The notes: generated by a model from the letters alone, not told the origin. A stretch of 64,000 nt of DNA from a virus (IMGVR_UViG_3300003097_000006); one strand, 5' to 3'. Positions 876 through 51,459 are shown, counted from the first letter of the stretch. Translations and numbers: made by a program.

Positions 876-1160
876 TCACTTGATGCTTACAGATACATCA
901 AACACAGAGGTTGGACCATCTCCACAATTCATAATGTTACTACCAGTCATAACAACAACCTTTGTGACTTTATGTTTTGCAGCGAATGCAGCAATGGCTT
1001 CCGTTAGTGCAGTATATGAATTCACATACCCAATATCGTCACAAGACCTCATGTTTGGAGAAGTCAGGGAACAATACGGACCTTTACCGGCAATAACAGA
1101 ATCAATCAACTGCTTTTTGTTGGTTTCATTCTTCGTCACAGTAGTGAACCTCAGCAACAC
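876..1160 (-). CDS. hypothetical protein (94 aa)
   Basis: Minus-strand ORF. It overlaps the 3' end of the upstream ORF 1126..1446 by 35 nt in another frame. Confidence 0.4.
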   Translation of the reverse strand: MLLRFTTVTKNETNKKQLIDSVIAGKGPYCSLTSPNMRSCDDIGYVNSYTALTEAIAAFAAKHKVTKVVVMTGSNIMNCGDGPTSVFDVSVSIK

Positions 1161-6349: not shown

Positions 6350-8299
6350 TTACTTGTTGTGGCTTGGAACCATTCCCAGTTCCAATTTTTTAGCGCAGGT
6401 TTCACAGCAAGGTGTGCTACCTACGAATTCTGTCGTTGCTGCCTTTTTGAATGGAATTTTATCATGACACCAAGAGCAGGTGTTCATTTCATTCCACTGA
6501 GACAGCGTGACCTTCATCCCATTTTGAAGAGTTTTACGATACGTCAGAATTGGACGAACGTTGCCCTTCGGTTTGTTAGCGTATTTGTTTGCAAAGCACT
6601 GCAAACAGACACACTCTTTTTCTGACTCTGCATCAACTGGAAGTTCAGTCGAACATTCGATACACTCGAAGCGAAGTTCTCCCAGTTGAGGCTCCCCCTT
6701 TGATTGTGACTCCTTTGGTTCAAGGCCGTCAATAAGACCGGCATCTACGCAGGCGTCACAGTAGGCGAAGTCACGGAACACAGTGGCATCAGCCATGAAG
6801 TCGAAGGGGATTGGAGAGCCACAATTTCCGCAGGAATTTAAACAATCGTGTCTCTCCCACTCCTTTTTTGTATAGACGCTACCATCTCTGGTTACGTCCA
6901 TTTCGTTACCGTCTGATTCCTCTTCTTCCATTTCTGGGTCTTGAGGGACGTCAACGTCGTCAGGAGTGTGTGTCTGAGCAATCAGCGCAGTTCCACGAAC
7001 AGTTGATGCAATGATATGTTCCATTTCATCATCTTCATCAAAATCATCATCCAAAGGAATTGGAGTGACATTGACAGTTTCGTCACGAACATCGCTGACA
7101 ATCAGAGTCAGAATGTAGTTGGCTTCATAAGCCGAGATAACTTTACCAGAGTACAGTTGCTCACCGCCATAGATGTTTTTATCAACACCATGACCCTGAA
7201 CTTCGATGTACTCACCTTCACCAATCCAGCCGGTCAGTTGACCACGCTCAGGATTTTTCGGATATGGTTCGAACTGGAATGCTTCGAACTTAATACGGTC
7301 ACCGATTACAGCATCAACGCCGTGGCTCTGAAGCATCTCATTTAACTGATGATGCTTTTCGAGCGTGGCTCTCATTTCTGATGTTTGATGAGTGTTGCTA
7401 GAAACGCGGTTTGGATAGCTGTTAGCCCCTCGATTATTGTGGGGCCAGCGGCTGTCGTAGTCGTCGTAGTCGTCGTCATACGAGTTATAGCCGCCCGAAT
7501 TCCAGTTGCGATAGTTGTAAGAATAGGTGGAGCGAAAGGTTGGAAGCTCATGCTTCACCTCCTCCCTAAACTTCAGCCCATCGGCGGTATCAAAGATATA
7601 CTGAACACCAACTTCGAGTTCAAACTCTTTTTCAATCGTCGGATTGAACTTCCGGCGAGACATAATCCATTTAATCATGTCTTTTTCGGAAGCACCATAC
7701 CAGTCACCGGTATTGGTTTTCATCATGTAGAAAGGACGCTCATCGTTTCGGATGAAATTCAGAGTGTTCTCTTTAGCATCATGCCAAACCAGAACGAACG
7801 CACCATGCAATTTCTTGATGGTTTCAGCGATACCGATTGTAGCAATCGAATAGCAGACATTTTCACTGTCTACTTCGAAACGCTTGTGGTCTGGTAACAA
7901 AGACTGGTCAACCAGTGAACCATTGTGAACCAGGGTGATATGCTCATGTTGGAAAGGGTGAGCGTTTTTGTCGTTAACCGCACCGGCAGTTGCATAACGG
8001 TTGTGACCAACCATGAACTTCGGATTGATTGAAGACGTCGTTGTTGCCTTCGTAACAGGGTTAACATTTTTGGTTTTGTGTTCTTTAACATCATCCCAGA
8101 TTTGGGAACGAACAAACATGTCACCTGGGATTGCTTTCTTTGCAATCTTAATGAAAGCTTGTTCATTATACGGCTTGTAATAAGCCATGACGCCAGTTGA
8201 GTGTTCACCACGGAAAGTGTCAGCAAACAACATGTTTTCAAAACGTTCGATATTAGCCGACGAAAGTGTCACGCCGCCCACAAATACGATTCCACACAT
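6350..8299 (-). CDS. class-II (Ntn) glutamine amidotransferase fused to a C-terminal array of CxxC zinc ribbons
   Basis: The protein starts MCGIVFVGG with a Cys2 nucleophile and carries GHNRYATAG, both characteristic of GATase class II (GlmS/AsnB/PurF-like). A Tyr/Asp/Asn-rich low-complexity linker follows. The C-terminus has at least 5 CxxC pairs (CGNCG, CDAC, CIEC, CLQC, CSWC, CETC). Confidence 0.7.
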   Translation of the reverse strand: MCGIVFVGGVTLSSANIERFENMLFADTFRGEHSTGVMAYYKPYNEQAFIKIAKKAIPGDMFVRSQIWDDVKEHKTKNVNPVTKATTTSSINPKFMVGHNRYATAGAVNDKNAHPFQHEHITLVHNGSLVDQSLLPDHKRFEVDSENVCYSIATIGIAETIKKLHGAFVLVWHDAKENTLNFIRNDERPFYMMKTNTGDWYGASEKDMIKWIMSRRKFNPTIEKEFELEVGVQYIFDTADGLKFREEVKHELPTFRSTYSYNYRNWNSGGYNSYDDDYDDYDSRWPHNNRGANSYPNRVSSNTHQTSEMRATLEKHHQLNEMLQSHGVDAVIGDRIKFEAFQFEPYPKNPERGQLTGWIGEGEYIEVQGHGVDKNIYGGEQLYSGKVISAYEANYILTLIVSDVRDETVNVTPIPLDDDFDEDDEMEHIIASTVRGTALIAQTHTPDDVDVPQDPEMEEEESDGNEMDVTRDGSVYTKKEWERHDCLNSCGNCGSPIPFDFMADATVFRDFAYCDACVDAGLIDGLEPKESQSKGEPQLGELRFECIECSTELPVDAESEKECVCLQCFANKYANKPKGNVRPILTYRKTLQNGMKVTLSQWNEMNTCSWCHDKIPFKKAATTEFVGSTPCCETCAKKLELGMVPSHNK

Positions 8300-12551: not shown

Positions 12552-13463
12552 TTATTCCCCTTTATTATCTTTCAGTACTTTCTCCCACACCGCCTGAGCA
12601 AGCTTCAGGAATTCACTTTCAACAAAGCGATGATGGTTTCCAAAACTGTTGTTGATAGTCAACAGTTCAGTTTTATCCCAATCTTCCGGGATGTTTTCCA
12701 GAGACGTTAACATCGTTGTATCAGTCAGAGTACAACGACGACCGGTACGTGGGTTAACTGGAGCAGAACCATCCCCGTAGTTACCATAACGACCGTAACC
12801 CTGCTCTGTATCACCGAACACGCCTTGATAGATTTTACCTAATCCACCTTCCATCATGTTGATGAGGTCAGCAACGGTTACTTCGTCACCGAATACACAT
12901 TCATCTCCACCCTGACCTTGCCAGAACGAGTATTCGGATGAACCGAAGCTCTTATTGCACTGATAGGTCATTGCCATGACGAACGAGAATGGAACATCGA
13001 AACCGGCAGTACGCAGAATCATGTACGAGTTCCCGAATGAGCTGTACTCAATCAGGTTACGCAGCATCATTGCGCCCATCACAGTAGTCTGCATGTTTTG
13101 GTCAGCCAGTGGAATATAAATATCACCGGTATCAAAACCGCCAAGTTCCAGACCTGGATAACTCTCATCTTCATCCAGAATCTTAAACCCACTGAAATAC
13201 TGAGGGAATGCTGCCAGAATTTCTGGAAGCTCCTGATTAATCAGCTGAGTTCCATCGCACCCAGATGGGCCAGGTGACCAAACCATATGGCTCAATTCAC
13301 CAGATGAGAAACCACTGAGAGGACCGGCTACATACTCGTCCTCTTCGTCATCCCATTGTTCGTTATCTTCATCCCACTGTTCGATGTAGGATAAAAATCC
13401 AAAGCAAGGTTTTGAAAACTCTTCACTTGCACCTCGCTTATTAAACACCGTAGCCATTACCAT
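12552..13463 (-). CDS. hypothetical protein (303 aa), acidic N-terminus
   Basis: Minus-strand ORF, Gly/Tyr-rich, no recognisable motif. Confidence 0.55.
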   Translation of the reverse strand: MVMATVFNKRGASEEFSKPCFGFLSYIEQWDEDNEQWDDEEDEYVAGPLSGFSSGELSHMVWSPGPSGCDGTQLINQELPEILAAFPQYFSGFKILDEDESYPGLELGGFDTGDIYIPLADQNMQTTVMGAMMLRNLIEYSSFGNSYMILRTAGFDVPFSFVMAMTYQCNKSFGSSEYSFWQGQGGDECVFGDEVTVADLINMMEGGLGKIYQGVFGDTEQGYGRYGNYGDGSAPVNPRTGRRCTLTDTTMLTSLENIPEDWDKTELLTINNSFGNHHRFVESEFLKLAQAVWEKVLKDNKGE

Positions 13464-16264: not shown

Positions 16265-16274
16265 TGTTGACCTC

Positions 16275-16448
16275 CTACTTATTGCAAGCCCAGAACGCAC
16301 CCTGAAGCGCTGCAAAGATGCCACCAACGAATGCCATACCCAGTGCATTGTCACCAGACCGGCACAGTAGTAAGATGAAAACGAAGATAAGAGTAAGCAG
16401 GAATGTAATCACTGCACTATAACCAAACAAACGACAAGCAGTTATCAT
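16275..16448 (-). CDS. small hydrophobic membrane protein (57 aa); candidate holin or lysis accessory
   Basis: ATG 16446-16448 overlaps the stop of the upstream HTH gene in an ATGA arrangement. The translation MITACRLFGYSAVITFLLTLIFVFILLLCRSGDNALGMAFVGGIFAALQGAFWACNK contains two hydrophobic stretches. It is below the 60-aa track cutoff. Confidence 0.4.
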   Translation of the reverse strand: MITACRLFGYSAVITFLLTLIFVFILLLCRSGDNALGMAFVGGIFAALQGAFWACNK

Positions 16449-20009: not shown

Positions 20010-20651
20010 TTACGCCGCTGGGACTTCGATTTGAGTCGCTGCGTTTGTTTCGTTCAGTGCAACGTCGACTTCCTGCTCGAACACCTCAATTTCGTTCAAC
20101 TGAGTTGTGATGAACTGTTGCAGGTCAACCGGTGCAACGATGGAAGGAGTACCACGCTTACGCATGTCTTCAATCGTCGTCTTCACCAGGTCTTCGTTCG
20201 TATTGTCGGCCTGTTCTTTCGAATAGGCGTCGATACGGTTTTCAAGCTCAGTCTTCTTCGTACCAACCGTCGCTGATACTGAACGGAGCTGCATCTGAAG
20301 GCGTAACAGGAACGCTTTGCGACTCACGACGAATTTCTTCATCTCAATCGCTTCCGCCAGCGTGTATGTCTTTTCGCCAACCTTCACAGTAGTTTGTGCA
20401 TTAGCCGTAACCACTGCTCGCTTGACCAACTCACGGCGAAGGATTAACGCTTGCAGTGAGTCGAAGTTACCTTTCAGCGCTGCTTTGAGCGATTCAAGGT
20501 CTTTGAAAGTGTTATCATTAGGTTTGGCGAGTTCGCCTTCACCCAACACAACACTCACAACTGGTAGGGCTGCCGCACGTTCAATGCGACCTCCCAGTGA
20601 TTTCAATTCTACCAACGCACGAGCGATGGAGATTTTAGTTGTTCCCGACAT
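20010..20651 (-). CDS. hypothetical protein (about 213 aa, start at MSGTTK)
   Basis: ATG 20649-20651 has an AAGAGG ribosome-binding site. The track start 20720 overlaps the upstream gene. Confidence 0.5.
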   Translation of the reverse strand: MSGTTKISIARALVELKSLGGRIERAAALPVVSVVLGEGELAKPNDNTFKDLESLKAALKGNFDSLQALILRRELVKRAVVTANAQTTVKVGEKTYTLAEAIEMKKFVVSRKAFLLRLQMQLRSVSATVGTKKTELENRIDAYSKEQADNTNEDLVKTTIEDMRKRGTPSIVAPVDLQQFITTQLNEIEVFEQEVDVALNETNAATQIEVPAA

Positions 20652-24368: not shown

Positions 24369-24584
24369 TCAGACATAATAGTGGAACTCCTTGTTGTGGA
24401 AGATAAATTTCTTACCAAGCAAAGTGCCCACCAAAACGGGAGACGTCACAGTAGTTTTAACTTCGAGAACAACCATTGATTCATTTTCAATCTTCAGTGG
24501 CTTGTTCTTCTTTTGCTTCTTTTTCATTGACTGGCTCCGGTACACAACGTGGGTTGGATTTTGGGAACCAGTGAATGCGACCAT
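24369..24584 (-). CDS. hypothetical basic protein (71 aa)
   Basis: Minus-strand ORF. Confidence 0.4.
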   Translation of the reverse strand: MVAFTGSQNPTHVVYRSQSMKKKQKKNKPLKIENESMVVLEVKTTVTSPVLVGTLLGKKFIFHNKEFHYYV

Positions 24585-25901: not shown

Positions 25902-26318
25902 TTAGTCCCCTAGTTTAAGACCCCAATCAGACCAATGAAGCTTGTGAGCCTCGTTATTAGTCTCGATGGAGTCAATAAGAGCCTGATAAGCTTTCTGCTG
26001 ACTTTCTGGAAGCTTCAAGATGATATGATAATTACCAAACCAATGGTATTGACCATACGTTCTAGGAACACCCATTTCAGACATGCAGATTCCAGTTACC
26101 AAGAACGAATGAGCGTACTCGCTGTGAGTATTCACTGAGGATGAGATTCTGAGAATCAAATCTCTGTGGACTTGCTCATAACTTGGCTTGGACAGCCTAC
26201 CATCAAAAATCGGTATAACCCAATCACCCGGTTTCAACTCTTTGAGGTCTTTAACTCTCAGAGGATGATTAAGGTACTTATTGAGGTACTCAGGTATAAT
26301 CGACATGGCGGCCATCAC
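25902..26318 (-). CDS. hypothetical protein (138 aa)
   Basis: Minus-strand ORF. Confidence 0.55.
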   Translation of the reverse strand: MMAAMSIIPEYLNKYLNHPLRVKDLKELKPGDWVIPIFDGRLSKPSYEQVHRDLILRISSSVNTHSEYAHSFLVTGICMSEMGVPRTYGQYHWFGNYHIILKLPESQQKAYQALIDSIETNNEAHKLHWSDWGLKLGD

Positions 26319-26324
26319 AGTAGT
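26313..26324 (-). repeat. 12-mer ACTACTGTGATG (minus strand), copy a of a 4-copy motif
   Basis: Spans the junction between the 50-aa ORF stop and the 25902..26318 start. Confidence 0.5.
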
Positions 26325-26476
26325 TACTGGAGTTTAGGCTCCGAGTGAAGATTACGAGAAGGCTCATAACGGTCATACGTTTTTGAGCCACCAGACTGCT
26401 TGATACTTGCGAAGCGGTCATGATTGAGCGCCTCGATAATATCTTTGCAGAAGAAGTCTTTAATGTGTTTCCACAT
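26324..26476 (-). CDS. hypothetical small protein (50 aa)
   Basis: A TGAGGT ribosome-binding site precedes ATG 26474-26476. The translation is MWKHIKDFFCKDIIEALNHD... It lies between tRNA-Cys and gene 25902..26318. Confidence 0.3.
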   Translation of the reverse strand: MWKHIKDFFCKDIIEALNHDRFASIKQSGGSKTYDRYEPSRNLHSEPKLQ

Positions 26477-26490
26477 AAATACCTCAGAAA

Positions 26491-26566
26491 TGGAGGATAG
26501 CACCCGATTCGAACGGGTGTGATTCGGATTTGCAATCCGATGCCTAAGCCACTCAGCCAGCTACCC
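26491..26566 (-). tRNA. tRNA-Cys (GCA)
   Basis: The reverse complement has acceptor GGGTAGC/GCTATCC, anticodon arm TCGGA-TTGCAAA-TCCGA (anticodon GCA), T-arm ACCCG-TTCGAAT-CGGGT, discriminator U73 (typical of tRNA-Cys) and an encoded CCA. Confidence 0.7.
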
Positions 26567-26572
26567 TATGAA

Positions 26573-26803
26573 TTATTTCAGGATGATATCAACGTCCAAC
26601 AGGTGCTTGACCCGCTGAGTGCAGGAGAAGTGCTTGAACCCGCCTTCCACATCAACAGCGTTAAAGTTAATCCCACGATGGCTTAGGTCTTTTGAATCGT
26701 TGACCTTAATGAACACGTTTGAATCAACCTGGAAGTATGACCAAAGAGGCAACTCACTGAAAGTTGCCTTTGCTTTAGTTTTATCAATCACTTTGATAGA
26801 CAT
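26573..26803 (-). CDS. hypothetical protein (76 aa)
   Basis: Minus-strand ORF. Confidence 0.5.
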   Translation of the reverse strand: MSIKVIDKTKAKATFSELPLWSYFQVDSNVFIKVNDSKDLSHRGINFNAVDVEGGFKHFSCTQRVKHLLDVDIILK

Positions 26804-26820
26804 GATATCACCCCTTGTGA

Positions 26821-27015
26821 TTATTCGCCTACAGACACACCGGTGCGGAAGCTTTTAGCACCCAGACGATTCATTGCCTTACGTGCCTGACGCTGGAGCT
26901 GAGCGCCCAGAACATCAACACGCTTGTTGGACTTGCGCTTGTAACCGTTGCGGGAGGTTGCCGGTTTAGCGAAAACTTTAGAGCTGGAATCTTGTTTCTT
27001 AGCACCTTTAGCCAT
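26821..27015 (-). CDS. small highly basic protein (64 aa)
   Basis: Lys/Arg-rich (AKGAKKQDSSSK...KRKSNKR). Possible nucleic-acid-binding protein. Confidence 0.5.
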   Translation of the reverse strand: MAKGAKKQDSSSKVFAKPATSRNGYKRKSNKRVDVLGAQLQRQARKAMNRLGAKSFRTGVSVGE

Positions 27016-27050
27016 TTTGAATCTCTCTTTGTTAGTTTGGTTAATTAAGT

Positions 27051-27133
27051 TGGAGCGGGCATCAGGAGTCGAACCTGAATCAGTTGCGCACCACTGTATG
27101 CCTACAATGGACTGATAATCCTATATTACCCGC
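27051..27133 (-). tRNA. probable tRNA (about 83 nt), anticodon arm not resolvable by eye
   Basis: The reverse complement has a 7-bp acceptor GCGGGTA/TGCCCGC, T-arm TCAGG-TTCGACT-CCTGA, discriminator U and an encoded CCA. The 48-nt core does not fold canonically. Confidence 0.4.
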
Positions 27134-27138
27134 TGAGG

Positions 27139-27217
27139 TGGGACGACCGAGGATTCGAACCTCGTACTGACTACGTAACAGCGCGCCTTCTGTAGCCAGC
27201 AACTACCTGCATCATCC
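27139..27217 (-). tRNA. probable tRNA (about 79 nt), anticodon arm not resolvable by eye
   Basis: The reverse complement has acceptor GGATGAT/GTCGTCC (with G-U pairs), T-arm CGAGG-TTCGAAT-CCTCG, discriminator C and an encoded CCA. The core is non-canonical, with GCGCGC and CTACGTAG palindromes. Confidence 0.4.
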
Positions 27218-27726
27218 ATCGAGCCCCCTTTCCTTAATACAGAGTAGGGAGAACACTCCGGTCGTTTCGATTATGAAGGCGACTCACCCTTCACGAGCGC
27301 ATTGGCGATTAAGCTGCTACTCGGAACGCATTATCATTTGCATTTATCTTTGTGGTCTGTTTCTTAAAAACCGCATAGACGCTACGACGATAACGAAAAC
27401 CTTTAAGAACTCTCGTGAGAACTCTTAGAGCTTTTCGTTGCCGCCTGTATCGTAGACGGCACACGCCCTATCAAGGGAAGCATTCTTAGTTCGAGTCACA
27501 TTCTCGGTTAAATTTACTGCTTCGGACTAGCTCGGATAGATTTCATAGTTTCTTTTCCGGATTCGCGGAGGTTAATGGGCGATGCCGAGTTTTGTTAGAG
27601 CAGGTTTTCTCGGAAACTGCTTGTCAGATGTTTGTTAACCCAGTTGTCTCTGGAAGGCTTGTACCGTCAACCCCTATTGGCGAGGTGAGATTGATAGTCT
27701 CATAGGGGCTGGCAGGTGGCGTCCGA

Positions 27727-27906
27727 TTACACCAACTGAGTCCCGAAAGGACGGGTTTGCTCAATCATGTTGATGTTACGGACAATGCCGCGAAGAATAA
27801 CCGCTTCAGATTTGAGAGCACCATTGCTGATGCTTTCCATCTTGGAAGGGCGATTCATACGCTTTTCAGCGTTGCGGCGAAATGCTTTGAGGTTACGAGA
27901 ATTCAT
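27727..27906 (-). CDS. hypothetical basic protein (about 59 aa)
   Basis: ATG 27904-27906 overlaps the 3' end of the zinc-finger gene by 14 nt. The translation is MNSRNLKAFRRNAEKRMNRPSK... It is below the ORF-track cutoff. Confidence 0.3.
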   Translation of the reverse strand: MNSRNLKAFRRNAEKRMNRPSKMESISNGALKSEAVILRGIVRNINMIEQTRPFGTQLV

Positions 27907-28108
27907 TTATGTCTTCCTTAATTTGCATGAGGAGGGTTTCTTTAGGTACAGCACAACCCGTACCATCGCAGGAGGTGCATGTCCAAGAGTTATAGGACAT
28001 GTCACCAGGTTCGGCATCGTCACACTGACCTGTTCCGTGACAAACGGGACACTTCATGGCCTCGACGTGGCGCTTTAAATTCTGGTAAAAGCCGGTAGGC
28101 TGAGGCAT
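27893..28108 (-). CDS. small zinc-finger protein (71 aa)
   Basis: CPVCHGTGQC...CTSCDGTGC. An AGGAG ribosome-binding site lies 9 nt upstream of ATG 28106-28108. Confidence 0.5.
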   Translation of the reverse strand: MPQPTGFYQNLKRHVEAMKCPVCHGTGQCDDAEPGDMSYNSWTCTSCDGTGCAVPKETLLMQIKEDINEFS

Positions 28109-28343
28109 TGAATCGTGCTCCTGTAAAGATTAAACCTTCACCAGAGCATTGATATGGCGTCAGGTCAGTGGCTTTGAAGAACATCTCACGAGCAACAGCA
28201 CGTAACTTGTTTACCATGCTTGTGTTTGAATCATGACGATACAGACAAAGACTGAGTTTGTAGAAAGTCCCCTTACACTTGAAGTACAAGGCATCGCGGT
28301 CTTTGTCGATTGATTTTTTATAAACTGTAACTATAACAGCCAT
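28020..28343 (-). CDS. hypothetical protein (about 107 aa); overlaps the zinc-finger gene by 89 nt in another frame
   Basis: The track ORF 28020..28538 is trimmed to the internal Met directly after the stop of the 28345..28644 gene. Confidence 0.35.
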   Translation of the reverse strand: MAVIVTVYKKSIDKDRDALYFKCKGTFYKLSLCLYRHDSNTSMVNKLRAVAREMFFKATDLTPYQCSGEGLIFTGARFNASAYRLLPEFKAPRRGHEVSRLSRNRSV

Positions 28344-28344
28344 T

Positions 28345-28644
28345 TTATTTTCTCCAGACCGGTTTGACTTTACCAGGGTTAAACCAGTCCCACTTGGAAC
28401 TATAAACCCCTTTTGCTGGGCCATATATTGATACTCCATTCTTTTTTGGATAGGAGCGATAGCCTTTCCACCAGACACGCTTGAGATAACCATCAGCGTC
28501 CAACTCACCGATACGAACATAGCCACGCTTAGTAGCATAACGTTTTGCAGTGAGCAGGTTATGTCTGACGTAGACCACTTCGTTTTTCTTAGTCATAATG
28601 ACATAAGTTTCAGCGGGGAATTTGAACACTGAGTCAGCCGTCAT
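28345..28644 (-). CDS. hypothetical protein (99 aa)
   Basis: Minus-strand ORF. Basic and Trp/Tyr-rich. Confidence 0.5.
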   Translation of the reverse strand: MTADSVFKFPAETYVIMTKKNEVVYVRHNLLTAKRYATKRGYVRIGELDADGYLKRVWWKGYRSYPKKNGVSIYGPAKGVYSSKWDWFNPGKVKPVWRK

Positions 28645-28649
28645 AGTAG

Positions 28650-29018
28650 TTAAGCCTTTTCTAAGAGCTTGTCACTCTCACGTTTAAATTCTTCAATCAA
28701 ACCATCATCAGGTTCAATAGGCATTAAATGCTTTTCAGCAATTAATGCGTAATCATCTGGTATGTTTGAATTGTAAATTTCAGGATTCTTTCTGAACCCC
28801 TCACTGCGGATGAGCCACAGGTTGATATCACATCGACGGATTTTAAAAGTTTTACCTGGGAAGATTACACAACTTCCCACCCAAGTCCCTTCTTCATCCA
28901 CCTCATGTGCAGCGAATCGCTGAACCAGAGTAACTGACTTACCGACTAAATGCTTTTTGCCGTAGTTAGTACGAGCATTAATTACAAGAGCATTTTCACC
29001 AGGAATTAAACCTTTCAC
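28650..29018 (-). CDS. hypothetical protein (122 aa, GTG start)
   Basis: An AAGGAG ribosome-binding site lies 7 nt upstream of GTG 29016-29018. The promoter-like box at 29037-29059 is immediately upstream. Confidence 0.55.
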   Translation of the reverse strand: MKGLIPGENALVINARTNYGKKHLVGKSVTLVQRFAAHEVDEEGTWVGSCVIFPGKTFKIRRCDINLWLIRSEGFRKNPEIYNSNIPDDYALIAEKHLMPIEPDDGLIEEFKRESDKLLEKA

Positions 29019-29036
29019 AGTGAACTCCTTATTATA

Positions 29037-29059
29037 TGTGGATTAACTGACTAATAAAT
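29037..29059 (-). promoter_or_regulatory. conserved promoter-like box, copy 3 (GTTAATCCACATATAATAAGGAG on the minus strand)
   Basis: Contains an exact TATAAT. It is directly followed by the ribosome-binding site and start of gene 28650..29018. Confidence 0.5.
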
Positions 29060-29342
29060 ACTCAGAGAATACTCATTAGTGAGTTGCCAGTCTCTTCCTG
29101 GCCGTCAAACCTAATCGGTGTCATAGCGGTTAACTATGTATGCGAGGTAAATCTCCATGTGGGAGCAAAACCTCCACCTAACTCATTCATTCCTATTCCA
29201 ACGTGCTCGGCCAAAGGAGGAGACCTTATCTGTACAACGAGTTGGTAGACTCACAGAGGGCTACATTGGGGAATTGTCCCATTTCAGAGAATTGACGATG
29301 AGCTGCCGCCTTCAGCAACGCAGACTAGCGTCTACAGCAGTG

Positions 29343-29501
29343 TTATTTTTCGGTCAGATAACGAATATCTGCCAGGATTTTGAATTGTTGCCCACAGTGT
29401 GTGCAGGTAACACGAATCTGGTCGAACTGACGTACACGATATGCAATCGTCCACGGTGTAACTTCTTTCTTACCCTCGCAATGAGGACAAGTAACAAACA
29501 T
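29343..29501 (-). CDS. small zinc-ribbon protein (52 aa)
   Basis: The translation MFVTCPHCEGKK...VTCTHCGQQF has two CxxC pairs. It is below the ORF-track cutoff. Confidence 0.4.
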   Translation of the reverse strand: MFVTCPHCEGKKEVTPWTIAYRVRQFDQIRVTCTHCGQQFKILADIRYLTEK

Positions 29502-29502
29502 C

Positions 29503-29685
29503 TTATCCACTTTTGATTACCTCTGTTTTAAATGTGTAGTCTGCACGAATATTGAATTCGGTTTCGCAGCCAGAGCATTTACGTTTAATGGGAGCGCCAG
29601 CCTTAACAAGACCTGAGACGCTATCTGATAAATTACCCCGTGTACCACACACAGGGCAGAAGAAAGCATTTTTGAAAATATCCAT
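29503..29685 (-). CDS. small zinc-ribbon protein (60 aa, start at MDIFKN)
   Basis: FFCPVCGTRG...KCSGCETEF. The track ORF 29503..29784 is trimmed so that it abuts the upstream 60-aa gene. Confidence 0.45.
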   Translation of the reverse strand: MDIFKNAFFCPVCGTRGNLSDSVSGLVKAGAPIKRKCSGCETEFNIRADYTFKTEVIKSG

Positions 29686-29686
29686 G

Positions 29687-29869
29687 CTACCAACCACGGA
29701 TAGTGTTGTTACGGCGTACAGAGTACTCTTCTTCACGCAGACGGCGAAGATTCTCGCTAATCTGTTGTGTTTCAGATTTCTCATTCTTCTTATTCAGAAG
29801 ACGCTCACGACGGTCTAAGTCACGCTCAGTCTGTCCGATAACAGCAGGTTTCATTTCTTTGGTATCCAT
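29687..29869 (-). CDS. hypothetical Arg/Glu-rich protein (60 aa)
   Basis: Minus-strand ORF fitting exactly between its neighbours. Confidence 0.4.
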   Translation of the reverse strand: MDTKEMKPAVIGQTERDLDRRERLLNKKNEKSETQQISENLRRLREEEYSVRRNNTIRGW

Positions 29870-30228
29870 CTTCTCTGTTGGAAATTAATGCTCCGAGCAT
29901 ACAGCGCCAAATGATTTGCACGATTGGCGATAACTTCAAGCGGGATGTCACCCTGCTCAAGCCCGGCGTCACAGTAGTACTTCTGGTGCAGACAAACACC
30001 CATCGCATACTCTCGACGGTTCTGCCAGATAGTAAAGAAGTCGTCTAACATTTCATCACTGAACTTGATGTATGGGTCAGACTTCATTCGGTTGATTGCC
30101 TCCGGTGATAGAGGCAACGGAGAGTGAGGCTTCATTGTGTGAGGGTAAATGTCACACATCATCGGCTTCACTGCTTTGTAATTCTCGTACTGCTCAGGGG
30201 TGAAGTGCGTTATCTCTGCCCGTACCAT
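29851..30228 (-). CDS. hypothetical protein (125 aa)
   Basis: Minus-strand ORF. Confidence 0.5.
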   Translation of the reverse strand: MVRAEITHFTPEQYENYKAVKPMMCDIYPHTMKPHSPLPLSPEAINRMKSDPYIKFSDEMLDDFFTIWQNRREYAMGVCLHQKYYCDAGLEQGDIPLEVIANRANHLALYARSINFQQRRWIPKK

Positions 30229-30592
30229 TTAGAACCTTCGATTTATTAGCCTCACCTACAACATAATACGAACCCCAAAGAGGTGTATAAATCTTGCAAG
30301 ACTGAGAAGGGTTTAAGTCACAACCTGTTTGCTCTTCTGCGAGACGAAGTACATCGACTAACGTCGCTTCTGTCTTTGATTTCGCACCCATCTCGATAGC
30401 TTCAAGATAACTATCGAAAACCATATCAAGACAAGTATCAGAGTCGCTTTGATTAGCAGCATCACACACCACCTTAGCGTCGTCGTTCATTTCATCAACG
30501 ATAGCTTGCGGCAGGAATACATCTGATTCATGTGCAAGCGCAGGAGCTGGATGACAAGCAGTCATCAACAGAATTAAAAGTAAACGTTTCAC
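30194..30592 (-). CDS. hypothetical secreted protein (132 aa) with signal peptide
   Basis: MKRLLLILLMTACHPAPALA is a signal peptide. Several Cys residues are present. Confidence 0.5.
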   Translation of the reverse strand: MKRLLLILLMTACHPAPALAHESDVFLPQAIVDEMNDDAKVVCDAANQSDSDTCLDMVFDSYLEAIEMGAKSKTEATLVDVLRLAEEQTGCDLNPSQSCKIYTPLWGSYYVVGEANKSKVLNGTGRDNALHP

Positions 30593-30595
30593 TAC

Positions 30596-30856
30596 TCACC
30601 TCAGTTGGCTGTCTTTCGAGCCTCTACGATTGTATCCAGAAGCAACCATACGGTCATTACCAGATTGGCAGCGGATACAGTGTGTGCAGCCCGGAACAGC
30701 TAATCGGCGGGCTTTAGGAATTGTCCGACCACAAGCTAAGCAATGGGTTCGAGCCTGTCCTCTCTTGATTTGAGAGCGAGCAAAGTCAACAGCATTATCC
30801 ACTGTAGCTTGAATAGTCTCTTGATGGTTGTCTACAGAACCGAACCCAACAGCCAT
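30596..30856 (-). CDS. DksA/TraR-family C4 zinc-finger protein
   Basis: CLACGRTIPKARRLAVPGCTHCIRCQ is the CxxC-x17-CxxC signature of the DksA/TraR family. Confidence 0.6.
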   Translation of the reverse strand: MAVGFGSVDNHQETIQATVDNAVDFARSQIKRGQARTHCLACGRTIPKARRLAVPGCTHCIRCQSGNDRMVASGYNRRGSKDSQLR

Positions 30857-31098
30857 TACTTGATTACCTCTAATGATTTGATGCTACGGGCTTCTACTAC
30901 CCCGTCAGACCACTTAACCCACACACGCTGGATGTTACCAGTGAATGCTGTAATAGTCCCAAACACCTGCTGGGTTGGTCGTGCATAGCGATAAAGCACT
31001 TTCTTATTTAACAGCACTTCACGCTGTACCTGGTTGACAGGTGCGCCGTTGTTGTTATCAAGAGAGGCTTTTAATAATTGGAAAGCTGATTGACGCAT
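30856..31098 (-). CDS. hypothetical protein (80 aa)
   Basis: Minus-strand ORF. Confidence 0.5.
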   Translation of the reverse strand: MRQSAFQLLKASLDNNNGAPVNQVQREVLLNKKVLYRYARPTQQVFGTITAFTGNIQRVWVKWSDGVVEARSIKSLEVIK

Positions 31099-31188
31099 GA
31101 TTTACATCCCCAAAGCTGCGGCAAATAACAGGCCGCCAAACACACCAGTGGCGCACAACGCAACCACACCAGACACAACAGAACGCGC

Positions 31189-31200
31189 CGTCACAGTAGT
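31189..31200 (-). repeat. 12-mer ACTACTGTGACG (minus strand), copy b
   Basis: Lies inside a small hydrophobic ORF (31102..31308 frame) and encodes the peptide N-T-T-V-T-A. Confidence 0.5.
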
Positions 31201-31201
31201 A

Positions 31202-31609
31202 TTACGAGTTGCCATGAGTGAGCACCTTAACCATTGCATATGGATTGATTGAAGTAATGTCGCCAGTTTCCAGAACTTTGGCACGAACTTCGGAGAAATC
31301 ACCCTCATTTTCGAGGATTAAAAACGTTTCAGAGTTGAAGTTGTTCTTATCATCTGCCATACGAACAACATCATTCACATCAAGTGCGCCAGCTTCGACT
31401 GGTTCGACTGCCTGAGTAGGCAGGAATTCGCACCGTGCATACGGCTGAAACTTCATGATACGCTTAGTATCTTCTTGAATGGCAAGCACATTGTCGTACT
31501 CACCATACATACGAATACACACGAACACCGCGCCGTTTGCTGTAAAACGTTCGCCGATATTCAATTCAAACATTTCTTTACGCATAGTTTTAGTCATGAT
31601 TAACTCCAA
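31202..31609 (-). CDS. hypothetical protein (135 aa)
   Basis: Minus-strand ORF. Overlaps the small hydrophobic ORF 31102..31308. Confidence 0.5.
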   Translation of the reverse strand: MELIMTKTMRKEMFELNIGERFTANGAVFVCIRMYGEYDNVLAIQEDTKRIMKFQPYARCEFLPTQAVEPVEAGALDVNDVVRMADDKNNFNSETFLILENEGDFSEVRAKVLETGDITSINPYAMVKVLTHGNS

Positions 31610-31788
31610 ATATCACGTTTAACAGTGAGATTGATTTGTGGTTTGCTACCAAACAAAGCCACACGAATCAGAGGCCACAGGGCAAGGATAAAGAAAACGC
31701 TTGCCAACATGTTGCCGCCCATGAGCCAGAAGAAGGCAGCCAGGATAAGGAACAATACAGACAGAGCAACAGTCAGAAACGTTTTCAT
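31600..31788 (-). CDS. small membrane protein (62 aa, 2 transmembrane helices)
   Basis: LTVALSVLFLILAAFFWLMGG and ASVFFILALWPLIRVALFG. Confidence 0.45.
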   Translation of the reverse strand: MKTFLTVALSVLFLILAAFFWLMGGNMLASVFFILALWPLIRVALFGSKPQINLTVKRDIWS

Positions 31789-31790
31789 AA

Positions 31791-32360
31791 TTAACCCTTA
31801 AACAGATTCCAGTGAACACGGAGTGCTTCCATGTCCAACTTAACACGGTGTTCTTTCAACTCTGTACCTTCATACAAAGCTGAATATGGATGATAGCAGT
31901 TGAAGTGTACTTTCATAGTGTCAGGGTCAACACTCATAAGTCCACGTTCAAACAGGATACGCAGAGTCGTGTCAAACAGTATTCCATTTGACGTACCATC
32001 ACCACCAGTAGGACGAATCATTGCAGCCTGCAAGCATTTGTCAATCTTATGACCCGTTACAGCACACTTACCACCAAAGTTAGCCATGACACGCTTATGG
32101 AATGTCATGAATTCAGTTTTAGGCGTTGCAGGAGCTGGAACATTTGCTTTGCTGGGCGGCGTCACAGTAGTTTGTGACACCTGGCGGTGACGGTGAAGTT
32201 GTGGGCGATAAGTTACCGTCTCTTCTGTTGCCCGCTGCTCTGCCTCAATACGTGCTTGACGTTGACGCTGAGCTTTTGTCGGTTTGTTTAACAGATTGTT
32301 TTGAGCCTTGAGCATATCAGCAATGATACGGTCTTGCTCCTCACGAGACGGCATATTCAT
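31791..32360 (-). CDS. HNH endonuclease (HNH_2-like) with basic N-terminal region
   Basis: GGKCAVTGHKIDKCLQAAMIRP...SNGILFDTTLRILFERGLMSVDP matches the HNH_2 pattern (C..TG....L.AAHI.P....NG..L....H.LFD.G). Confidence 0.6.
   Translation of the reverse strand: MNMPSREEQDRIIADMLKAQNNLLNKPTKAQRQRQARIEAEQRATEETVTYRPQLHRHRQVSQTTVTPPSKANVPAPATPKTEFMTFHKRVMANFGGKCAVTGHKIDKCLQAAMIRPTGGDGTSNGILFDTTLRILFERGLMSVDPDTMKVHFNCYHPYSALYEGTELKEHRVKLDMEALRVHWNLFKG
32160..32171 (-). repeat. 12-mer ACTACTGTGACG (minus strand), copy c, inside the palindrome GTCACAAACTACTGTGAC
   Basis: Lies inside the HNH gene and encodes the peptide Q-T-T-V-T-P. Confidence 0.5.
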
Positions 32361-32361
32361 T

Positions 32362-32571
32362 TTAAAATCCCCACACGTTATTCGTGTAACTCACACCTGT
32401 AGGCCGTGACGTGTCCGCCATTGACCTATCGTGTGCTTTCTTGATGTTAGCCTTGAGTTGTTTTCTCTCGGCCTGTAAACGTTTGTAGAGCTTTTTGCTC
32501 TTGACACGCGGAACACAGCGGCCTTTACACTTTTGAAGATGTTCGAGGTCGTTCCACGTTTTACTAGCCAT
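32362..32571 (-). CDS. hypothetical basic protein (about 70 aa, start at MASKTW)
   Basis: The track ORF 32362..32727 is trimmed. ATG 32569-32571 overlaps the stop of gene 32564..32932 by 8 nt. Confidence 0.35.
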   Translation of the reverse strand: MASKTWNDLEHLQKCKGRCVPRVKSKKLYKRLQAERKQLKANIKKAHDRSMADTSRPTGVSYTNNVWGF

Positions 32572-32932
32572 GACGCTTGCCCTTTGCAAACTTAGAGGAC
32601 TGGCGACGTGCTTTGTGAATCTTTGGCTTAGGTGTGCCACGAACACCACGACGATTAGGCGCAGCATTCTTTTCAGCCAGCATTTCAGGCGTATATGTAC
32701 GCTCGTCACCCAGCTTGATTGTTTCACCTGACACTTTGGTCTTAAAGCCGTGTTGACTCACCTGGTAGTGCAGACATTTACGCTTACGACCGTCTAAGAG
32801 CTTTGTAGTCAGTTCACTAGCAGTCTTACGACCACCCACAGGAGAAAGAGCTTGCTTGCGTTTAGGCTGGCGAGATTTACCCTTTGGTTTGACTGCGTAG
32901 ATTGACGCATTCATGATGAATTGAACAGACAT
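32564..32932 (-). CDS. hypothetical highly basic protein (122 aa)
   Basis: An AAGGGG ribosome-binding site is present. Lys/Arg-rich. The 12-mer motif copy d lies about 30 nt upstream. Confidence 0.5.
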   Translation of the reverse strand: MSVQFIMNASIYAVKPKGKSRQPKRKQALSPVGGRKTASELTTKLLDGRKRKCLHYQVSQHGFKTKVSGETIKLGDERTYTPEMLAEKNAAPNRRGVRGTPKPKIHKARRQSSKFAKGKRHG

Positions 32933-32963
32933 ACTAACCCCTTGTCAGTTGATAGGCGCACCC

Positions 32964-32975
32964 GTCACAGTAGTT
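32964..32975 (-). repeat. 12-mer ACTACTGTGACG (minus strand), copy d, flanked by GGTGCGCC direct repeats
   Basis: Non-coding position between the 41-aa ORF and gene 32564..32932. Confidence 0.5.
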
Positions 32976-32993
32976 TCGAGGCGCACCAGTGCT

Positions 32994-33118
32994 TAGATAA
33001 ACATACTTGCAACAATCATTGCAGCGATAATCAATCCGGCAAACTTTGCCCAGAATGCTGCCACACCTTCATGAATGTTAATATCACCGTATTCAACGGT
33101 GTACTTGTTACGCTTCAT
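32994..33118 (-). CDS. small membrane-anchored peptide (41 aa)
   Basis: A strong AGGAG ribosome-binding site lies 8 nt upstream of ATG 33116-33118. The translation MKRNKYTVEYGDINIHEGVAAFWAKFAGLIIAAMIVASMFI is hydrophobic at the C-terminus. It is below the ORF-track cutoff. Confidence 0.3.
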
Positions 33119-34975: not shown

Positions 34976-34999
34976 CAGTAAATCCACATATAATAAGAG
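34976..34999 (+). promoter_or_regulatory. conserved promoter-like box, copy 4 (CAGTAAATCCACATATAATAAGAG), pointing rightward into ORF-free DNA
   Basis: Same box as upstream of three minus-strand genes, but here in the plus orientation. The only downstream ATG (35001) is followed by a stop after 2 codons. Confidence 0.45.
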
Positions 35000-36039: not shown

Positions 36040-36100
36040 TTACCAGTGTGATTATATACGTGTGAAACTATATCGTGTGGAATGATACCGTGTGGATATT
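36040..36100. repeat. three direct repeats of CGTGTGRA spaced about 15 bp apart (tacgtgtgaaact / atcgtgtggaatg / accgtgtggatat)
   Basis: Seen directly in the sequence. A candidate protein-binding array. Confidence 0.4.
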
Positions 36101-48569: not shown

Positions 48570-51459
48570 TGCTTTATCGAATGCTAACTTTGACCAGAAC
48601 GATGTTGAATCAATGATGCAGGGACATTTGCTGTTCCTGCAAAAGAATACTGGTAGAACGGATGATGCTACTCAGCAACACTACGTTTTCAACCCAGAAA
48701 TGATTCTCTCGAACAACAGGCACTTCATTGCAAGGGCCCAGATGGAAGCACAGCCAAACGGTGATGCTACAACTGAAGGTCAGTCACTCCAAATCATTGG
48801 TTTCTGTTATGCATATATGGCTACAGGTGTTCCTGAATATCTACAAGCAGCAAGAGATTGTTTTGATGCGTACATTGACCACTTCTATGCAGGACAACCA
48901 ATTCCAAACTCACCTCAGCGTTACATCTGTAACTGGCTGGTGAATGGTAAAGAACCTGTACTGGCTAACTGGCCTGTAGACCTTGAATTTCCGACTCACT
49001 CCGGTTTCAAAGGTGTGATGATGAATTTCACCAATGGTAGAACTCAAATCCCTCATGGTGCTCCATATTGGGGCGAGTACGTTGATAAGGTTACGTTTGC
49101 TTTTGATGGTGCATTAGGTTGGGATTCAATTGTAGGTGCAGTTAAGGGTATCAACCCCGACGGTTCTACGGACTGGAACTCTGATGGTGTTCAATACGAT
49201 TGTGAATGGGTAATCTCGTACACTGGTCAGAAGATTACTGGTGATGCTTGGAAGGGTAATGACATTGATGGGAATTATCGTGAAGGGTCTGGCTGGATTC
49301 TGTCTGAAGGTCATCCAACATCTGAAATCGGTACAGTTCAACTCGGTAACAAGAACGTCCAAGGTAATCACAAGTTAAACTGGGGTAACAGGCAGCCAGT
49401 TGAGCATGGTGGTTATATGATGCAAAGGAATGAAGTGTGGCATAACCGTCCACTCAACGTTCCAGTAGCAGTTGACAAAGGTGATGGTCAAGGTCGTCCA
49501 TACGGTCAGCTCGGTAACGCATCTGATGCCGAACAGTGGTTTGCTGATGCTGCTTATTTGCTGTATAAGATTACTGGTGAGTCAAAATACTGGACTGTTT
49601 GGCAATGTGTTATTGAAACGGTAACTGAATACTCCAACATTGACGCTGTAGATAGATTCTTCCGTCAAGAAGTTGGTGCAAACACTCCGTGGACTGATGG
49701 CATCTCTTATGACTACCAATATCCATCTGGAAACAAGGTTGGTTACATTCGTGACGAGAACGGCTACATCGGCGTCACAGTAGCTGAGGGTGGTTCTAAC
49801 ACAATGGAGCAACAGGCCGTTTGGTATCTGTGTGATAACAACTCTAAGGTGAGAACTACGATTGGAGGGAGAGGTAACTTAGGTGAAAACCTGAACGTTG
49901 AAGTGACAATTAGTATGGCTAATAGTAAAACTGAGCCTGAAGCTAATTGGACTATTTGGAAGGCGAATTTGCCGTACCCATCAGAACAGCCGAACATTAT
50001 CGACACTAAGATGAATGAATTCCTTCAATTAAGACGTGAAGACGGTTCTGAATTCGTAATGGCAGATAGTCGCTCTGTTGTAAACTATGGTGCTTCTGAG
50101 AACACAATGATGTTCCAAGATAATATCATTGATGGTCGTACAGCACAAGTTTCCTACAACACTTTGCGTAACTCTGGTTCTGGTGTGATTATTGGTTTCT
50201 GGTTGCTGGAAAGCAAGAGACTTGATGTTACTTCAATCGTTATGAAAAGTAACATGGGGTTAGATATCGGAATCACTGACGATAACGGTTGGTACTGGCA
50301 CTGGCAGGTTCCTTCGACTGGTAACCAATGGAAAGAAGTTTCACTACCTCGCTCTGGTTTGATTATTAATGATTATCAAGCGAACCCTGGTACCCCTCCA
50401 TCAGCTCCGTCTTATACAACTGTAGACCAAATTGAGATTACTCAGACTAGTAACAACCCAAGTGGTGAGTTTACTTGGTATTCAGTGAACGAAATGCCAA
50501 GACGTTATAATCTGGGTAAACGTTACTTGATGAAATACTCAATGAACGTTCGTAACTCTGACTCTGGTTTCAGTTATAAGGTTGGTGACTGTATGGTTGT
50601 GGACTATCTGGATGGTGACCTGTTCTGTACTCCAGGTGTTATTCCATTCTCAAATATCTACACCGAGGGTTCTCAACAGTTTGATGGTTGGCATGGTATG
50701 CCTTATCCTGGCTATCAATATCCATTTGTTTGGTTATTCAGGCCCAACTTTAAAACCAGACTGAATAACATGGTCGAGTTTATGTATCAATCTCAAACTT
50801 GGTTCCAAGGTAGATTTGGTACTCTCGGGCCAGGTGCTTCAGCCTATATCTGGAACCGTTGGGATAACTACAAATATGGTACACCAGATACCTGGACTAT
50901 GTACCACTGGGGTAGTGACCACGCTTGGGCAGGTTATCAGCCTCGTGCTTACTTTGGTGCTGCTCGTGCTTGGTACGAATTGGTACTTGAAGGGGAAACT
51001 GTTCCACCGAAACTGATTACATATGTTGAAAACTGGACTAAGTTCCTGTCTAAGACAATGGAAGCGAATGGTGGTTACTCTCCAACTGACTTTACAACAG
51101 ATGGTAGGGTAATTTGTGACCCCAATGACTTTACTGGTCATATGTGCGGTTTGTTCTTGGCAGGTGCTTGTATCTCATATTTGGCAGGTGCTAAAACCCC
51201 TGGTATTGAGAATCTGATTGAAATGTTAGCTGCTGAACTGAGCAGAAACTATCAAATCACCCCAACCCCAGACCATGTGATGAACGGCTCTTGGAGTCCT
51301 GCACTGAGATTGGGTACTGGTTCTGGTCCAGAAAACAATGGTATGTTCTTTGGCTTCTGGTCTGGTGAAATCCTGAGAGGCTTAGGCTTATACCTTCTTT
51401 ATAAGAAACTGTCTCCTAAAGATGACATGTACGAATACTCACAGGAGGAACATTCATGA
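48562..51459 (+). CDS. large tail protein, possibly a tailspike or receptor-binding protein (about 965 aa)
   Basis: The ATG at 48562 overlaps the stop of the previous gene. Trp/Gly/Asn-rich sequence typical of fibre or spike beta-structure. No enzymatic motif recognised. Confidence 0.6.
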   Translation: MLNALSNANFDQNDVESMMQGHLLFLQKNTGRTDDATQQHYVFNPEMILSNNRHFIARAQMEAQPNGDATTEGQSLQIIGFCYAYMATGVPEYLQAARDCFDAYIDHFYAGQPIPNSPQRYICNWLVNGKEPVLANWPVDLEFPTHSGFKGVMMNFTNGRTQIPHGAPYWGEYVDKVTFAFDGALGWDSIVGAVKGINPDGSTDWNSDGVQYDCEWVISYTGQKITGDAWKGNDIDGNYREGSGWILSEGHPTSEIGTVQLGNKNVQGNHKLNWGNRQPVEHGGYMMQRNEVWHNRPLNVPVAVDKGDGQGRPYGQLGNASDAEQWFADAAYLLYKITGESKYWTVWQCVIETVTEYSNIDAVDRFFRQEVGANTPWTDGISYDYQYPSGNKVGYIRDENGYIGVTVAEGGSNTMEQQAVWYLCDNNSKVRTTIGGRGNLGENLNVEVTISMANSKTEPEANWTIWKANLPYPSEQPNIIDTKMNEFLQLRREDGSEFVMADSRSVVNYGASENTMMFQDNIIDGRTAQVSYNTLRNSGSGVIIGFWLLESKRLDVTSIVMKSNMGLDIGITDDNGWYWHWQVPSTGNQWKEVSLPRSGLIINDYQANPGTPPSAPSYTTVDQIEITQTSNNPSGEFTWYSVNEMPRRYNLGKRYLMKYSMNVRNSDSGFSYKVGDCMVVDYLDGDLFCTPGVIPFSNIYTEGSQQFDGWHGMPYPGYQYPFVWLFRPNFKTRLNNMVEFMYQSQTWFQGRFGTLGPGASAYIWNRWDNYKYGTPDTWTMYHWGSDHAWAGYQPRAYFGAARAWYELVLEGETVPPKLITYVENWTKFLSKTMEANGGYSPTDFTTDGRVICDPNDFTGHMCGLFLAGACISYLAGAKTPGIENLIEMLAAELSRNYQITPTPDHVMNGSWSPALRLGTGSGPENNGMFFGFWSGEILRGLGLYLLYKKLSPKDDMYEYSQEEHS

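Follow-up and report, generated by a model that had tools for sequence, protein, structure and literature searches.

A dispersed one-strand word in a Moazamivirus-like phage genome is best explained as a tf-type nick site

Introduction

That phage genomes can carry fixed single-strand nicks has been known, from T5, since the 1960s. To our knowledge, the purpose of these nicks is not established for any phage that has them, nor is the enzyme acting at sites of the type present in the Pseudomonas putida phage tf. In tf, a member of Krylovvirus, localized single-chain interruptions (sci1-14) lie on one strand at the consensus 5'-TACT/RTGMC-3' (Glukhov et al. 2012, PMC3517423). Their mapping relied on primer extension and sequencing run-off as well as on ligase-reversible ladders in denaturing gels. 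T4 ligase seals the lesion, and TACTGTGAC is the main nicked word, with TACTGTGCC and TACTATGAC also nicked (PMC3517423). In the Pseudomonas phage Rembedalsseter, native nanopore sequencing confirmed nicks at WACTRTGAC, a motif enriched in a cluster of 61 Pseudomonas phages that includes Bruynoghevirus (Dougherty et al. 2025, PMC11780129). Here, we analyse a viral DNA stretch of 64,000 nucleotides (IMGVR_UViG_3300003097_000006, the whole of which is called the window), in which the 12-nucleotide word ACTACTGTGAYG recurs on the minus strand. An initial annotation, made from the sequence of the window, had noticed part of this repeat and attributed to it a function at the DNA or RNA level. The word is best explained, from its sequence and distribution, as a tf-type nick word in a phage family where such words were previously undescribed.

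Results

The word is non-random and confined to one strand

Eight exact copies of ACTACTGTGAYG are present in the window, every one of them on the minus strand, against a composition-based expectation of 0.008 (P=4e-22). Shuffled sequences contained 0.02 copies on average, and none of 100 shuffles attained eight. Together with six one-base variants, also exclusively on the minus strand, they form a set of 14 sites with a minus-to-plus ratio of 14:0 (Table 1). The 14-nucleotide form of the repeat taken from the initial annotation, searched with up to two mismatches, gave 14 matches, all minus, where 1.0 was expected. Listing the sites in their contexts revealed a conserved core, CTACTGTGAC(G), surrounded by flanks without conservation. 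The tf consensus TACTRTGMC itself has 11 minus-strand and no plus-strand occurrences in the window (composition-based expectation 1.05, P=2e-8), namely eight of TACTGTGAC, two of TACTGTGCC and one of TACTATGAC, so that all three variants nicked in tf (3/3) are represented. The remaining three of the 14 sites depart from this consensus at position 9 alone. When all 8- and 9-mers were ranked without bias by strand asymmetry, using an order-2 Markov model, ACTACTGTG and CTACTGTGA came out at the top in the window and in every Moazamivirus genome. The motif set is highly non-random and real.

The initial annotation had reported four copies, in one orientation, at 26313-26324, 31189-31200, 32160-32171 and 32964-32975. 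All four exist, the first three at these positions and the last at 32963-32974. Four was an undercount, since exact copies also start at 1134, 13077, 24444 and 29967, the last of them inside the very interval that had been described. The extended reading AACTACTGTGAYGG, said to be common to all four, applies to two of them, the copy at 31189 being preceded by T and that at 32160 followed by C. The judgement that such a repeat is very unlikely by chance agrees with the shuffled and composition-based expectations given above. The local contexts had also been read correctly: the copies at 32160 and 31189 lie in genes and encode T-T-V-T, that at 26313 bridges a TAA stop and a GTG/ATG start, that at 32963 sits in a 5' untranslated region flanked by GGTGCGCC at 32955-32962 and 32980-32987, and that at 32160 falls within GTCACA-N6-TGTGAC.

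Sites follow the early and middle genes

The window is ~93% identical to the Salmonella phages SE131 and 7-11 (Moazamivirus, Grimontviridae) and ~80% identical to pSal-SNUABM-01 (pSal01), and its counterpart in the 7-11 record spans about 55.5-89.9 kb together with 1-29.3 kb. Early and middle genes are encoded on the minus strand from position 1 to ~34 kb, and late genes on the plus strand from ~36 kb. Twelve of the 14 sites are located in the early/middle arm, on the sense strand, while the other two are antisense in the late arm. Successive gaps between sites become shorter toward the early-gene end, measuring 5620, 6323, 3283, 4022, 4062, 1869, 2326, 1328, 1222, 971 and 803 bp. About half of the early-arm sites are found at gene boundaries and the other half deep inside genes; overall, the sites use all three reading frames, as well as gene junctions, an intergenic region and the antisense strand of late genes. 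The sites at 26313 and 28639 share the layout taA-CTACT-(G/A)TG, in which the start codon begins at the predicted nick. In tf, the nicks sci1, sci4 and sci11 coincide with the first base of tf_04, tf_15 and tf_41.

Hairpins were found only at the 32160 and 32963 copies, the other sites tested folding no better than shuffled sequences, and both the palindrome at 32160 and the flanking repeats at 32963 are confined to their single site. The 32963 copy occupies the loop of a quasi-palindromic GGTGCGCC/GGTGCGCC stem (window 32945-32995, minus). In pSal01, the corresponding stem is CCGCC/GGCGG (pSal01 42590-42632, minus; DNA-fold z = -2.8), which suggests a conserved hairpin in the 5' untranslated region of the second early gene.

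The two arms are separated by a gene-poor stretch (~33900-36100), to which both ends of the 7-11 GenBank record map (~34.4 kb in the window). As the window crosses the deposited 7-11 genome termini, the source record must begin elsewhere.

Table 1. The 14 minus-strand sites in the window. Exact, copy of ACTACTGTGAYG; variant, one base different. Fractions give motif positions identical in the named relative. Nick positions are predictions by analogy with tf.
Word	Position	Strand	Class	Context	Relatives
ACTACTGTGACG	1134..1145	-	exact	gene junction; GTG of the motif is the annotated gp089 start codon in 7-11; predicted nick between 1140 and 1139	12/12 in 7-11 and SE131
CCTACTGTGACG	6754..6765	-	variant	within 649-amino-acid glutamine amidotransferase gene, frame Y-C-D	12/12 in 7-11 and SE131; 11/12 in pSal01, flanks there 22% diverged
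ACTACTGTGATG	13077..13088	-	exact	position-9 variant (GAT); within 303-amino-acid gene	12/12 in all three
ACTACTGTGCCG	16360..16371	-	variant (ends GTGCCG)	TACTGTGCC variant, nicked in tf; close to gene boundary	no match in 7-11 or SE131; 11/12 in pSal01
ACTACTGTGAAG	20382..20393	-	variant (ends GTGAAG)	position 9 is A; within 236-amino-acid gene	canonical GAC
ACTACTGTGACG	24444..24455	-	exact	within 71-amino-acid early gene, T-T-V-T	12/12 in pSal01 despite 22% flank divergence
ACTACTGTGATG	26313..26324	-	exact	position-9 variant (GAT); TAA stop of upstream gene ends on motif base 1; GTG/ATG of downstream 138-amino-acid open reading frame begins at base 7; predicted nick between 26319 and 26318	
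ACTACTATGACG	28639..28650	-	variant (ends TATGACG)	TACTATGAC variant, nicked in tf, dominant in LUZ24; arranged like 26313, with TAA stop on base 1 and ATG start from base 7	12/12 in all
ACTACTGTGACG	29967..29978	-	exact	within 125-amino-acid early gene, frame Y-C-D	12/12 in pSal01 while 30/100 flank positions differ
ACTACTGTGACG	31189..31200	-	exact	1 base past TAA stop of 135-amino-acid open reading frame; within start of small downstream open reading frame	
ACTACTGTGACG	32160..32171	-	exact	within open reading frame 31791-32360; local GTCACA/TGTGAC inverted repeat; encodes conserved QTTVT island in a hypervariable protein linker	
ACTACTGTGACG	32963..32974	-	exact	intergenic, 31 nucleotides upstream of ATG at 32932	12/12 in pSal01
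GCTACTGTGACG	49773..49784	-	variant	antisense to late (tail) genes	stretch without nucleotide homolog in the three relatives
ACTACTGTGCCG	62470..62481	-	variant (ends GTGCCG)	antisense to 1508-amino-acid late gene (59438-63964)	12/12 in 7-11, SE131 and pSal01; flanks 22-25% diverged

The word is conserved in close relatives

The one-strand distribution extends to the close relatives. Plus/minus counts of TACTRTGMC are 0/11 in the window, 1/12 in 7-11, 1/13 in pSal01 and 12/1 in SE131, whose record is inverted relative to the window, with 14/0 in tf. Across the 11 sites that can be compared with pSal01, only 4/132 motif positions differ, compared to 192/1155 flank positions (Fisher P=5e-6), and the motif is therefore under purifying selection at the DNA level. 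The sites concerned include an intergenic one, one antisense to a late gene and the QTTVT island of the hypervariable linker, and the motif is retained where flanks have diverged by 20-30%. This supports the frame-independent function put forward in the initial annotation, as the word is kept far above its flanks in all three frames, at junctions, between genes and in antisense. Some turnover was observed: 16360 is unmatched in 7-11 and SE131, and 49773 lies in a stretch lacking homologs in the relatives.

The single plus-strand copy in 7-11 (13087) is also kept in pSal01 (13111) and PKM.Lu.22.1 (17616), within a homolog of the gp013 tail gene. In the window, it has decayed to ACTTCAGTGATG (47404-47415, plus strand). 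The minus-strand copy at 49773-49784, 2.4 kb away, is unique to the window.

The word co-varies across phage lineages

Conservation on one strand, seen in 7-11, SE131 and pSal01, holds in further lineages, in forms that are specific to each. Strand counts are 14:0 for nTACTGTGACg in tf and 9:0 for gTACTATGACg in LUZ24. The same word as in the window is found in PKM.Lu.22.1 (ACTACTGTGA, 12:0) and in the Pantoea phage TacPo2 (10:0). A one-base variant, ACTACgGTGACG (the TACG form), replaces it in GAP52 (aCTACgGTGACg, 8:1, the top non-repeat asymmetric word of that genome) and in the Aeromonas phage LAh_8 (ACTACGGTG, 9:2). In the Proteus phage Privateer, the T form (ACTACTGTG, 8:0) and the G form (ACTACGGTGA, 4:0) coexist on one strand; either base beside the predicted cut may be acceptable to its system, or the genome may stand between two specificities. 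TacPo2 and LAh_8 had been picked solely for carrying the candidate enzyme genes described below, and both proved motif-positive. With one genome taken per positive lineage, the nine lineages together have 90 copies on the early-sense strand and 5 on the opposite strand. The motif is absent from the Vibrio phage Phriendly and from phiEco32. No diverged form of it emerged in phiEco32 either, the most asymmetric words there coming from the terminal repeat and from conserved MSK gene starts. Such lineage-by-lineage co-variation of the word is what would be expected of a protein recognition site.

A core of replication and structural genes is common to these phages, tf and LUZ24. Searches with blastp and profile hidden Markov models (HMMs) found homologs in both tf and LUZ24 for 19 of 63 core Grimontviridae open reading frames (ORFs), including the terminase, portal, capsid, polymerase, primase-helicase and amidoligase cluster. 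In a set of 80 viral-contig loci centred on the shared COOH-NH2 ligase, only contigs of the tf cluster were strongly enriched in the motif, and Grimontviridae-like contigs were enriched at lower density.

Three distant relatives by the COOH-NH2 ligase (IMGVR_UViG_3300020050_003099, 3300020049_003308 and 3300020050_008607) have other dispersed one-strand words with unconserved flanks, rGGTCGGTCAt (10:0 and 9:0) and GGTCTATCA (7:0), several of which adjoin ATG or TAA; these may be analogous recognition or nick sites of different specificity. Tandem arrays in contigs L042 (7484-7700) and L089 (1-135), with a 12-bp GTCTGCTGCTRR unit and a 6-bp CGGCWA unit, gave spurious asymmetric k-mer signals and are unrelated to the motif.

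Candidate enzymes

The initial annotation had named the HNH gene at 31791..32360, which contains the 32160 copy, as a possible enzyme. This attribution did not hold. The match of this ORF to HNH_2 (E 0.0014, 18.8 bits) is below the Pfam cutoff of 21, and blastp detected no homolog in the motif-bearing tf or LUZ24. The histidines of its 7-11 homolog gp147 (AAHI...HLLFD) are replaced in the window, SE131 and pSal01 (AAMI...RILFE), all of which bear the motif, so that the putative catalytic histidines are gone in three of four motif-bearing Moazamivirus genomes. The protein (minus strand, 189 amino acids) consists of a charged N-terminal region, a hypervariable linker and a C-terminal HNH_2-like domain, which may be an inactivated nuclease domain. 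The terminase was likewise rejected, as the genome ends of tf and LUZ24 have no similarity to the motif, and so was Endonuclease VII (7-11 gp083), which is unannotated at the equivalent place in the motif-bearing SE131 and pSal01.

Comparative genomics weakly indicates two other nickase candidates, both encoded outside the window. One is a Phage_endo_I-like protein (7-11 gp029), the only one of the 19 shared core ORFs missing from the motif-free phiEco32. It is insufficient alone, since Phriendly has a 48%-identical homolog but no motif. The other is gp068 of 7-11 (PHROG 4590, labelled 'unknown function'), a protein of 113 amino acids with the minimal HNH-like signature VDHKK..GG.N..SNL...N. 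The Pfam HNH model matches five of seven members of this family weakly (best E 0.0016), PHROG HNH families match at 1e-4 to 4e-5, and no solved structure matches by sequence. A gp068-like protein is present in 9/9 motif-positive lineages and absent from Phriendly; its presence in the motif-free phiEco32 excludes it as the sole determinant. In 7-11, gp068 lies directly downstream of gene 69, and the late promoter P69, experimentally validated in the 7-11 promoter study, is located 112 nucleotides upstream of gene 69. Taken as a pair, the HNH-like and endonuclease-I-like proteins fit 9/9 positive and 2/2 negative lineages, which we treat as a lead and not a finding, given that the lineages are non-independent and the negatives only two.

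The ORF of the PHROG 4590 protein (tf 16129-16416, plus strand; LUZ24 15622-15933, plus strand) differs from the frames annotated there, tf_29 (16115-16429) and LUZ24 gp26 (15668-15937), which are described as transmembrane proteins and are probably mis-annotations or overlapping genes.

Discussion

A probable nicking system of the tf type

We consider it likely, with a probability of roughly 0.75, that the 14 copies serve a phage-encoded nicking system of the tf type, specific for both site and strand, as its recognition sequences. The initial annotation had listed several functions for the repeat, of which a strand-specific nick site is favoured, given the identity of the core with the nick consensus mapped by experiment in tf; a regulator-binding site and an RNA cleavage signal are not supported, the former for want of promoter overlap and the latter because antisense late sites are conserved. 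The motif, its strand exclusivity, its conservation, its co-variation among lineages and its identity with the tf consensus are established here.

From the precedent of tf, we infer a physical nick in this phage, together with its exact position, its timing and an enzyme responsible. A nuclease made late in infection would recognise the asymmetric word (a)CTACT-RTGAC(g) and cut the motif strand only, after the T that precedes R (ACTACT/GTGACG); the resulting 3'-OH and 5'-P ends could be rejoined by ligase. Virion DNA would then bear ~14-16 fixed nicks on the strand whose 5' end is at the early-gene terminus, to be sealed after injection. As the nicked strand would be the non-template strand for early and middle genes, unrepaired DNA would remain open to early transcription.

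Several points weigh against this interpretation. Three of the window sites are position-9 variants (GAT, GAA) outside those nicked in tf. Nicking was lost in tf when position 4 was substituted (TACC; PMC3517423), which means that the TACG sites of GAP52 and LAh_8 would require a changed specificity. Neither candidate enzyme is phyletically clean on its own, phiEco32 having the HNH-like protein and Phriendly the endonuclease-I homolog while both are motif-free. The 2025 survey saw no enrichment beyond the 61-phage cluster, although it covered only the 250 genomes nearest Rembedalsseter (PMC11780129), and our literature search found no report of nicks for either Moazamivirus or Grimontviridae. 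When full texts were searched for the motif string, only the two Pseudomonas papers (PMC3517423, PMC11780129) came up.

Alternative explanations

That the repeat has no function, arising by chance or as a by-product of a recurrent T-T-V-T peptide or of codon usage, might be proposed from the six of 14 window sites, and one in 7-11, that read T-T-V-x in frame. This is effectively refuted by the probabilities obtained (P about 1e-8 to 1e-22), by zero copies on the plus strand, by the use of three reading frames plus non-coding and antisense contexts, and by the recurrence of the same one-strand word or its one-base variant in nine lineages. An RNA-level role, with ACUACU/GUGACG as an mRNA processing site or a translation-initiation element, for instance in making leaderless mRNAs, would account for the sense orientation of 12/14 sites, for the GTG or ATG starts right after ACTACT at 26313, 28639 and 1134 (the last by the 7-11 annotation), and for the 5' untranslated hairpin whose loop holds the 32963 copy and whose stem differs in sequence at the same place in pSal01. 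It does not account for two sites antisense to late genes, one of which (62470) is kept in full in three relatives, nor for the half of the early-arm sites that lie deep within genes in three frames; no hairpins form at the other sites tested, and nicking of DNA at this very word has been proven in tf and Rembedalsseter. We hold such a role, taken as the explanation of the motif, to be quite unlikely, while noting that RNA and DNA-nick functions are mutually compatible.

It is very unlikely that the word is the target of a site-specific base modification, by a methyltransferase or hypermodification enzyme, in place of a strand break. These phages do encode DNA methyltransferases and an unusual cluster of amidoligase, ATP-grasp and glutamine-amidotransferase genes, but the amidoligase cluster is also found in the motif-free phiEco32. 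At 10-12 bp, the word is long, asymmetric, rare and restricted to one strand, quite unlike typical methylase sites, and the lesion in tf must be a nick, since T4 ligase seals it. A replication signal, either the recognition site of a T7-like primase-helicase or an unsealed Okazaki junction, is scarcely credible even though the complement of the motif (CGTCAC...) holds the 5'-GTC-3' used by T7-type primases and these phages encode T7 gp4-like primase-helicases. T7-type primase sites span 3-5 nucleotides and number hundreds per genome, so ~14 sites of 10-12 nucleotides are too long and too rare; by our reasoning, priming opposite GTC would start from the A of GAC, 3 nucleotides downstream of the tf nick, and homologous primase-helicases occur in the motif-free phiEco32 and Phriendly. 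The motif begins with ACTA and thereby resembles the -10 part of the late-promoter consensus GTAAtg-N16-aCTA, as might a transcription-factor binding site or promoter element, for example the -10 'aCTA' of promoters of the phage sigma factor gp47. We find this highly improbable: when a GTAA element was sought 19 nucleotides upstream of CTA (GTAA-N19-CTA), with the eight published 7-11 promoters as controls, the relaxed pattern recovered 8/8 controls and none of the sites. Moreover, sites occur inside genes with no conserved flanks, no homolog of the gp47 sigma ORF was seen in the motif-bearing tf and LUZ24, all eight late promoters of the 7-11 study lie elsewhere, and the 7-11 transcription paper reported no over-represented motif in intergenic regions.

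Implications

A fuller account of the tf-type nicking system can be sketched, which we regard as a tentative possibility and, as a whole, unlikely. It would be a late two-component system, made up of a gp068-like minimal HNH-like nuclease of ~100 amino acids and a T7-endonuclease-I-like protein, whose specificity has co-evolved (TACT to TACG) across a large supergroup of podophages of Pseudomonas, Salmonella, Cronobacter, Proteus, Pantoea and Aeromonas, and which would deliberately place nicks in the non-template strand, in many cases immediately 5' of a start codon. Were this so, the long-sought nickase would be identified and a genetically tractable enterobacterial model for nicked phage genomes would be at hand.

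If the sites are indeed nicked, the tf-type word would no longer be limited to a cluster of Pseudomonas phages but would reach at least six further lineages, from enterobacterial and Aeromonas phages, and the nick problem would become accessible in Salmonella and E. coli-type hosts, which lend themselves to genetics. A natural specificity variant (T to G beside the cut; ACTACTGTGACG versus ACTACGGTGACG), combined with two related motif-free genomes, offers a comparative design that would narrow the enzyme search to two small nucleases. Because a nicked strand comes out in fragments when native DNA is sequenced with long reads, a map of the sites would also help in reading coverage drops in these phages.

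Comparison with known nicked genomes

Phages of the phiKMV and T5/BF23 types likewise carry fixed one-strand breaks in virion DNA, at 5'-CGACxxxxxCCTA/CTCCGG-3' and 5'-R/GCGCRGG-3', respectively, the non-coding strand being the nicked one in phiKMV-like phages. Their recognition sequences are unrelated to the word described here, which matches neither the T5-type nor the phiKMV-type consensus, and the phages themselves are unrelated or only distantly related. The Rembedalsseter cluster is closer, sharing the motif family, the one-strand bias, the bias toward gene starts and the uneven distribution along the genome. Moazamivirus, Crifsvirus, Privateervirus, PKM.Lu.22.1, TacPo2 and Lahexavirus nevertheless fall outside that cluster, and the TACG variant is undescribed there.

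The closest counterpart is tf, despite clear differences. The phage studied here belongs to Grimontviridae, with a Salmonella host, a genome of ~90 kb (about twice that of tf), its own sigma factor and 44-45% GC content, compared to 53% in tf. Its conserved word is longer on the 5' side (aC-TACT...) and includes the GAT and GAA position-9 variants, absent in tf, and its nicks are predicted, whereas those of tf were mapped experimentally. The two phages nonetheless share a core of replication and structural genes, the same 9-bp motif core with the same three variants, and the 3' G. In both, the sites occupy one strand, are in sense orientation for early and middle genes, become denser toward the early end and include a couple in the late arm, and several of them stand at start codons (26313 and 28639 in the window, gp089 in 7-11, and sci1, sci4 and sci11 in tf).

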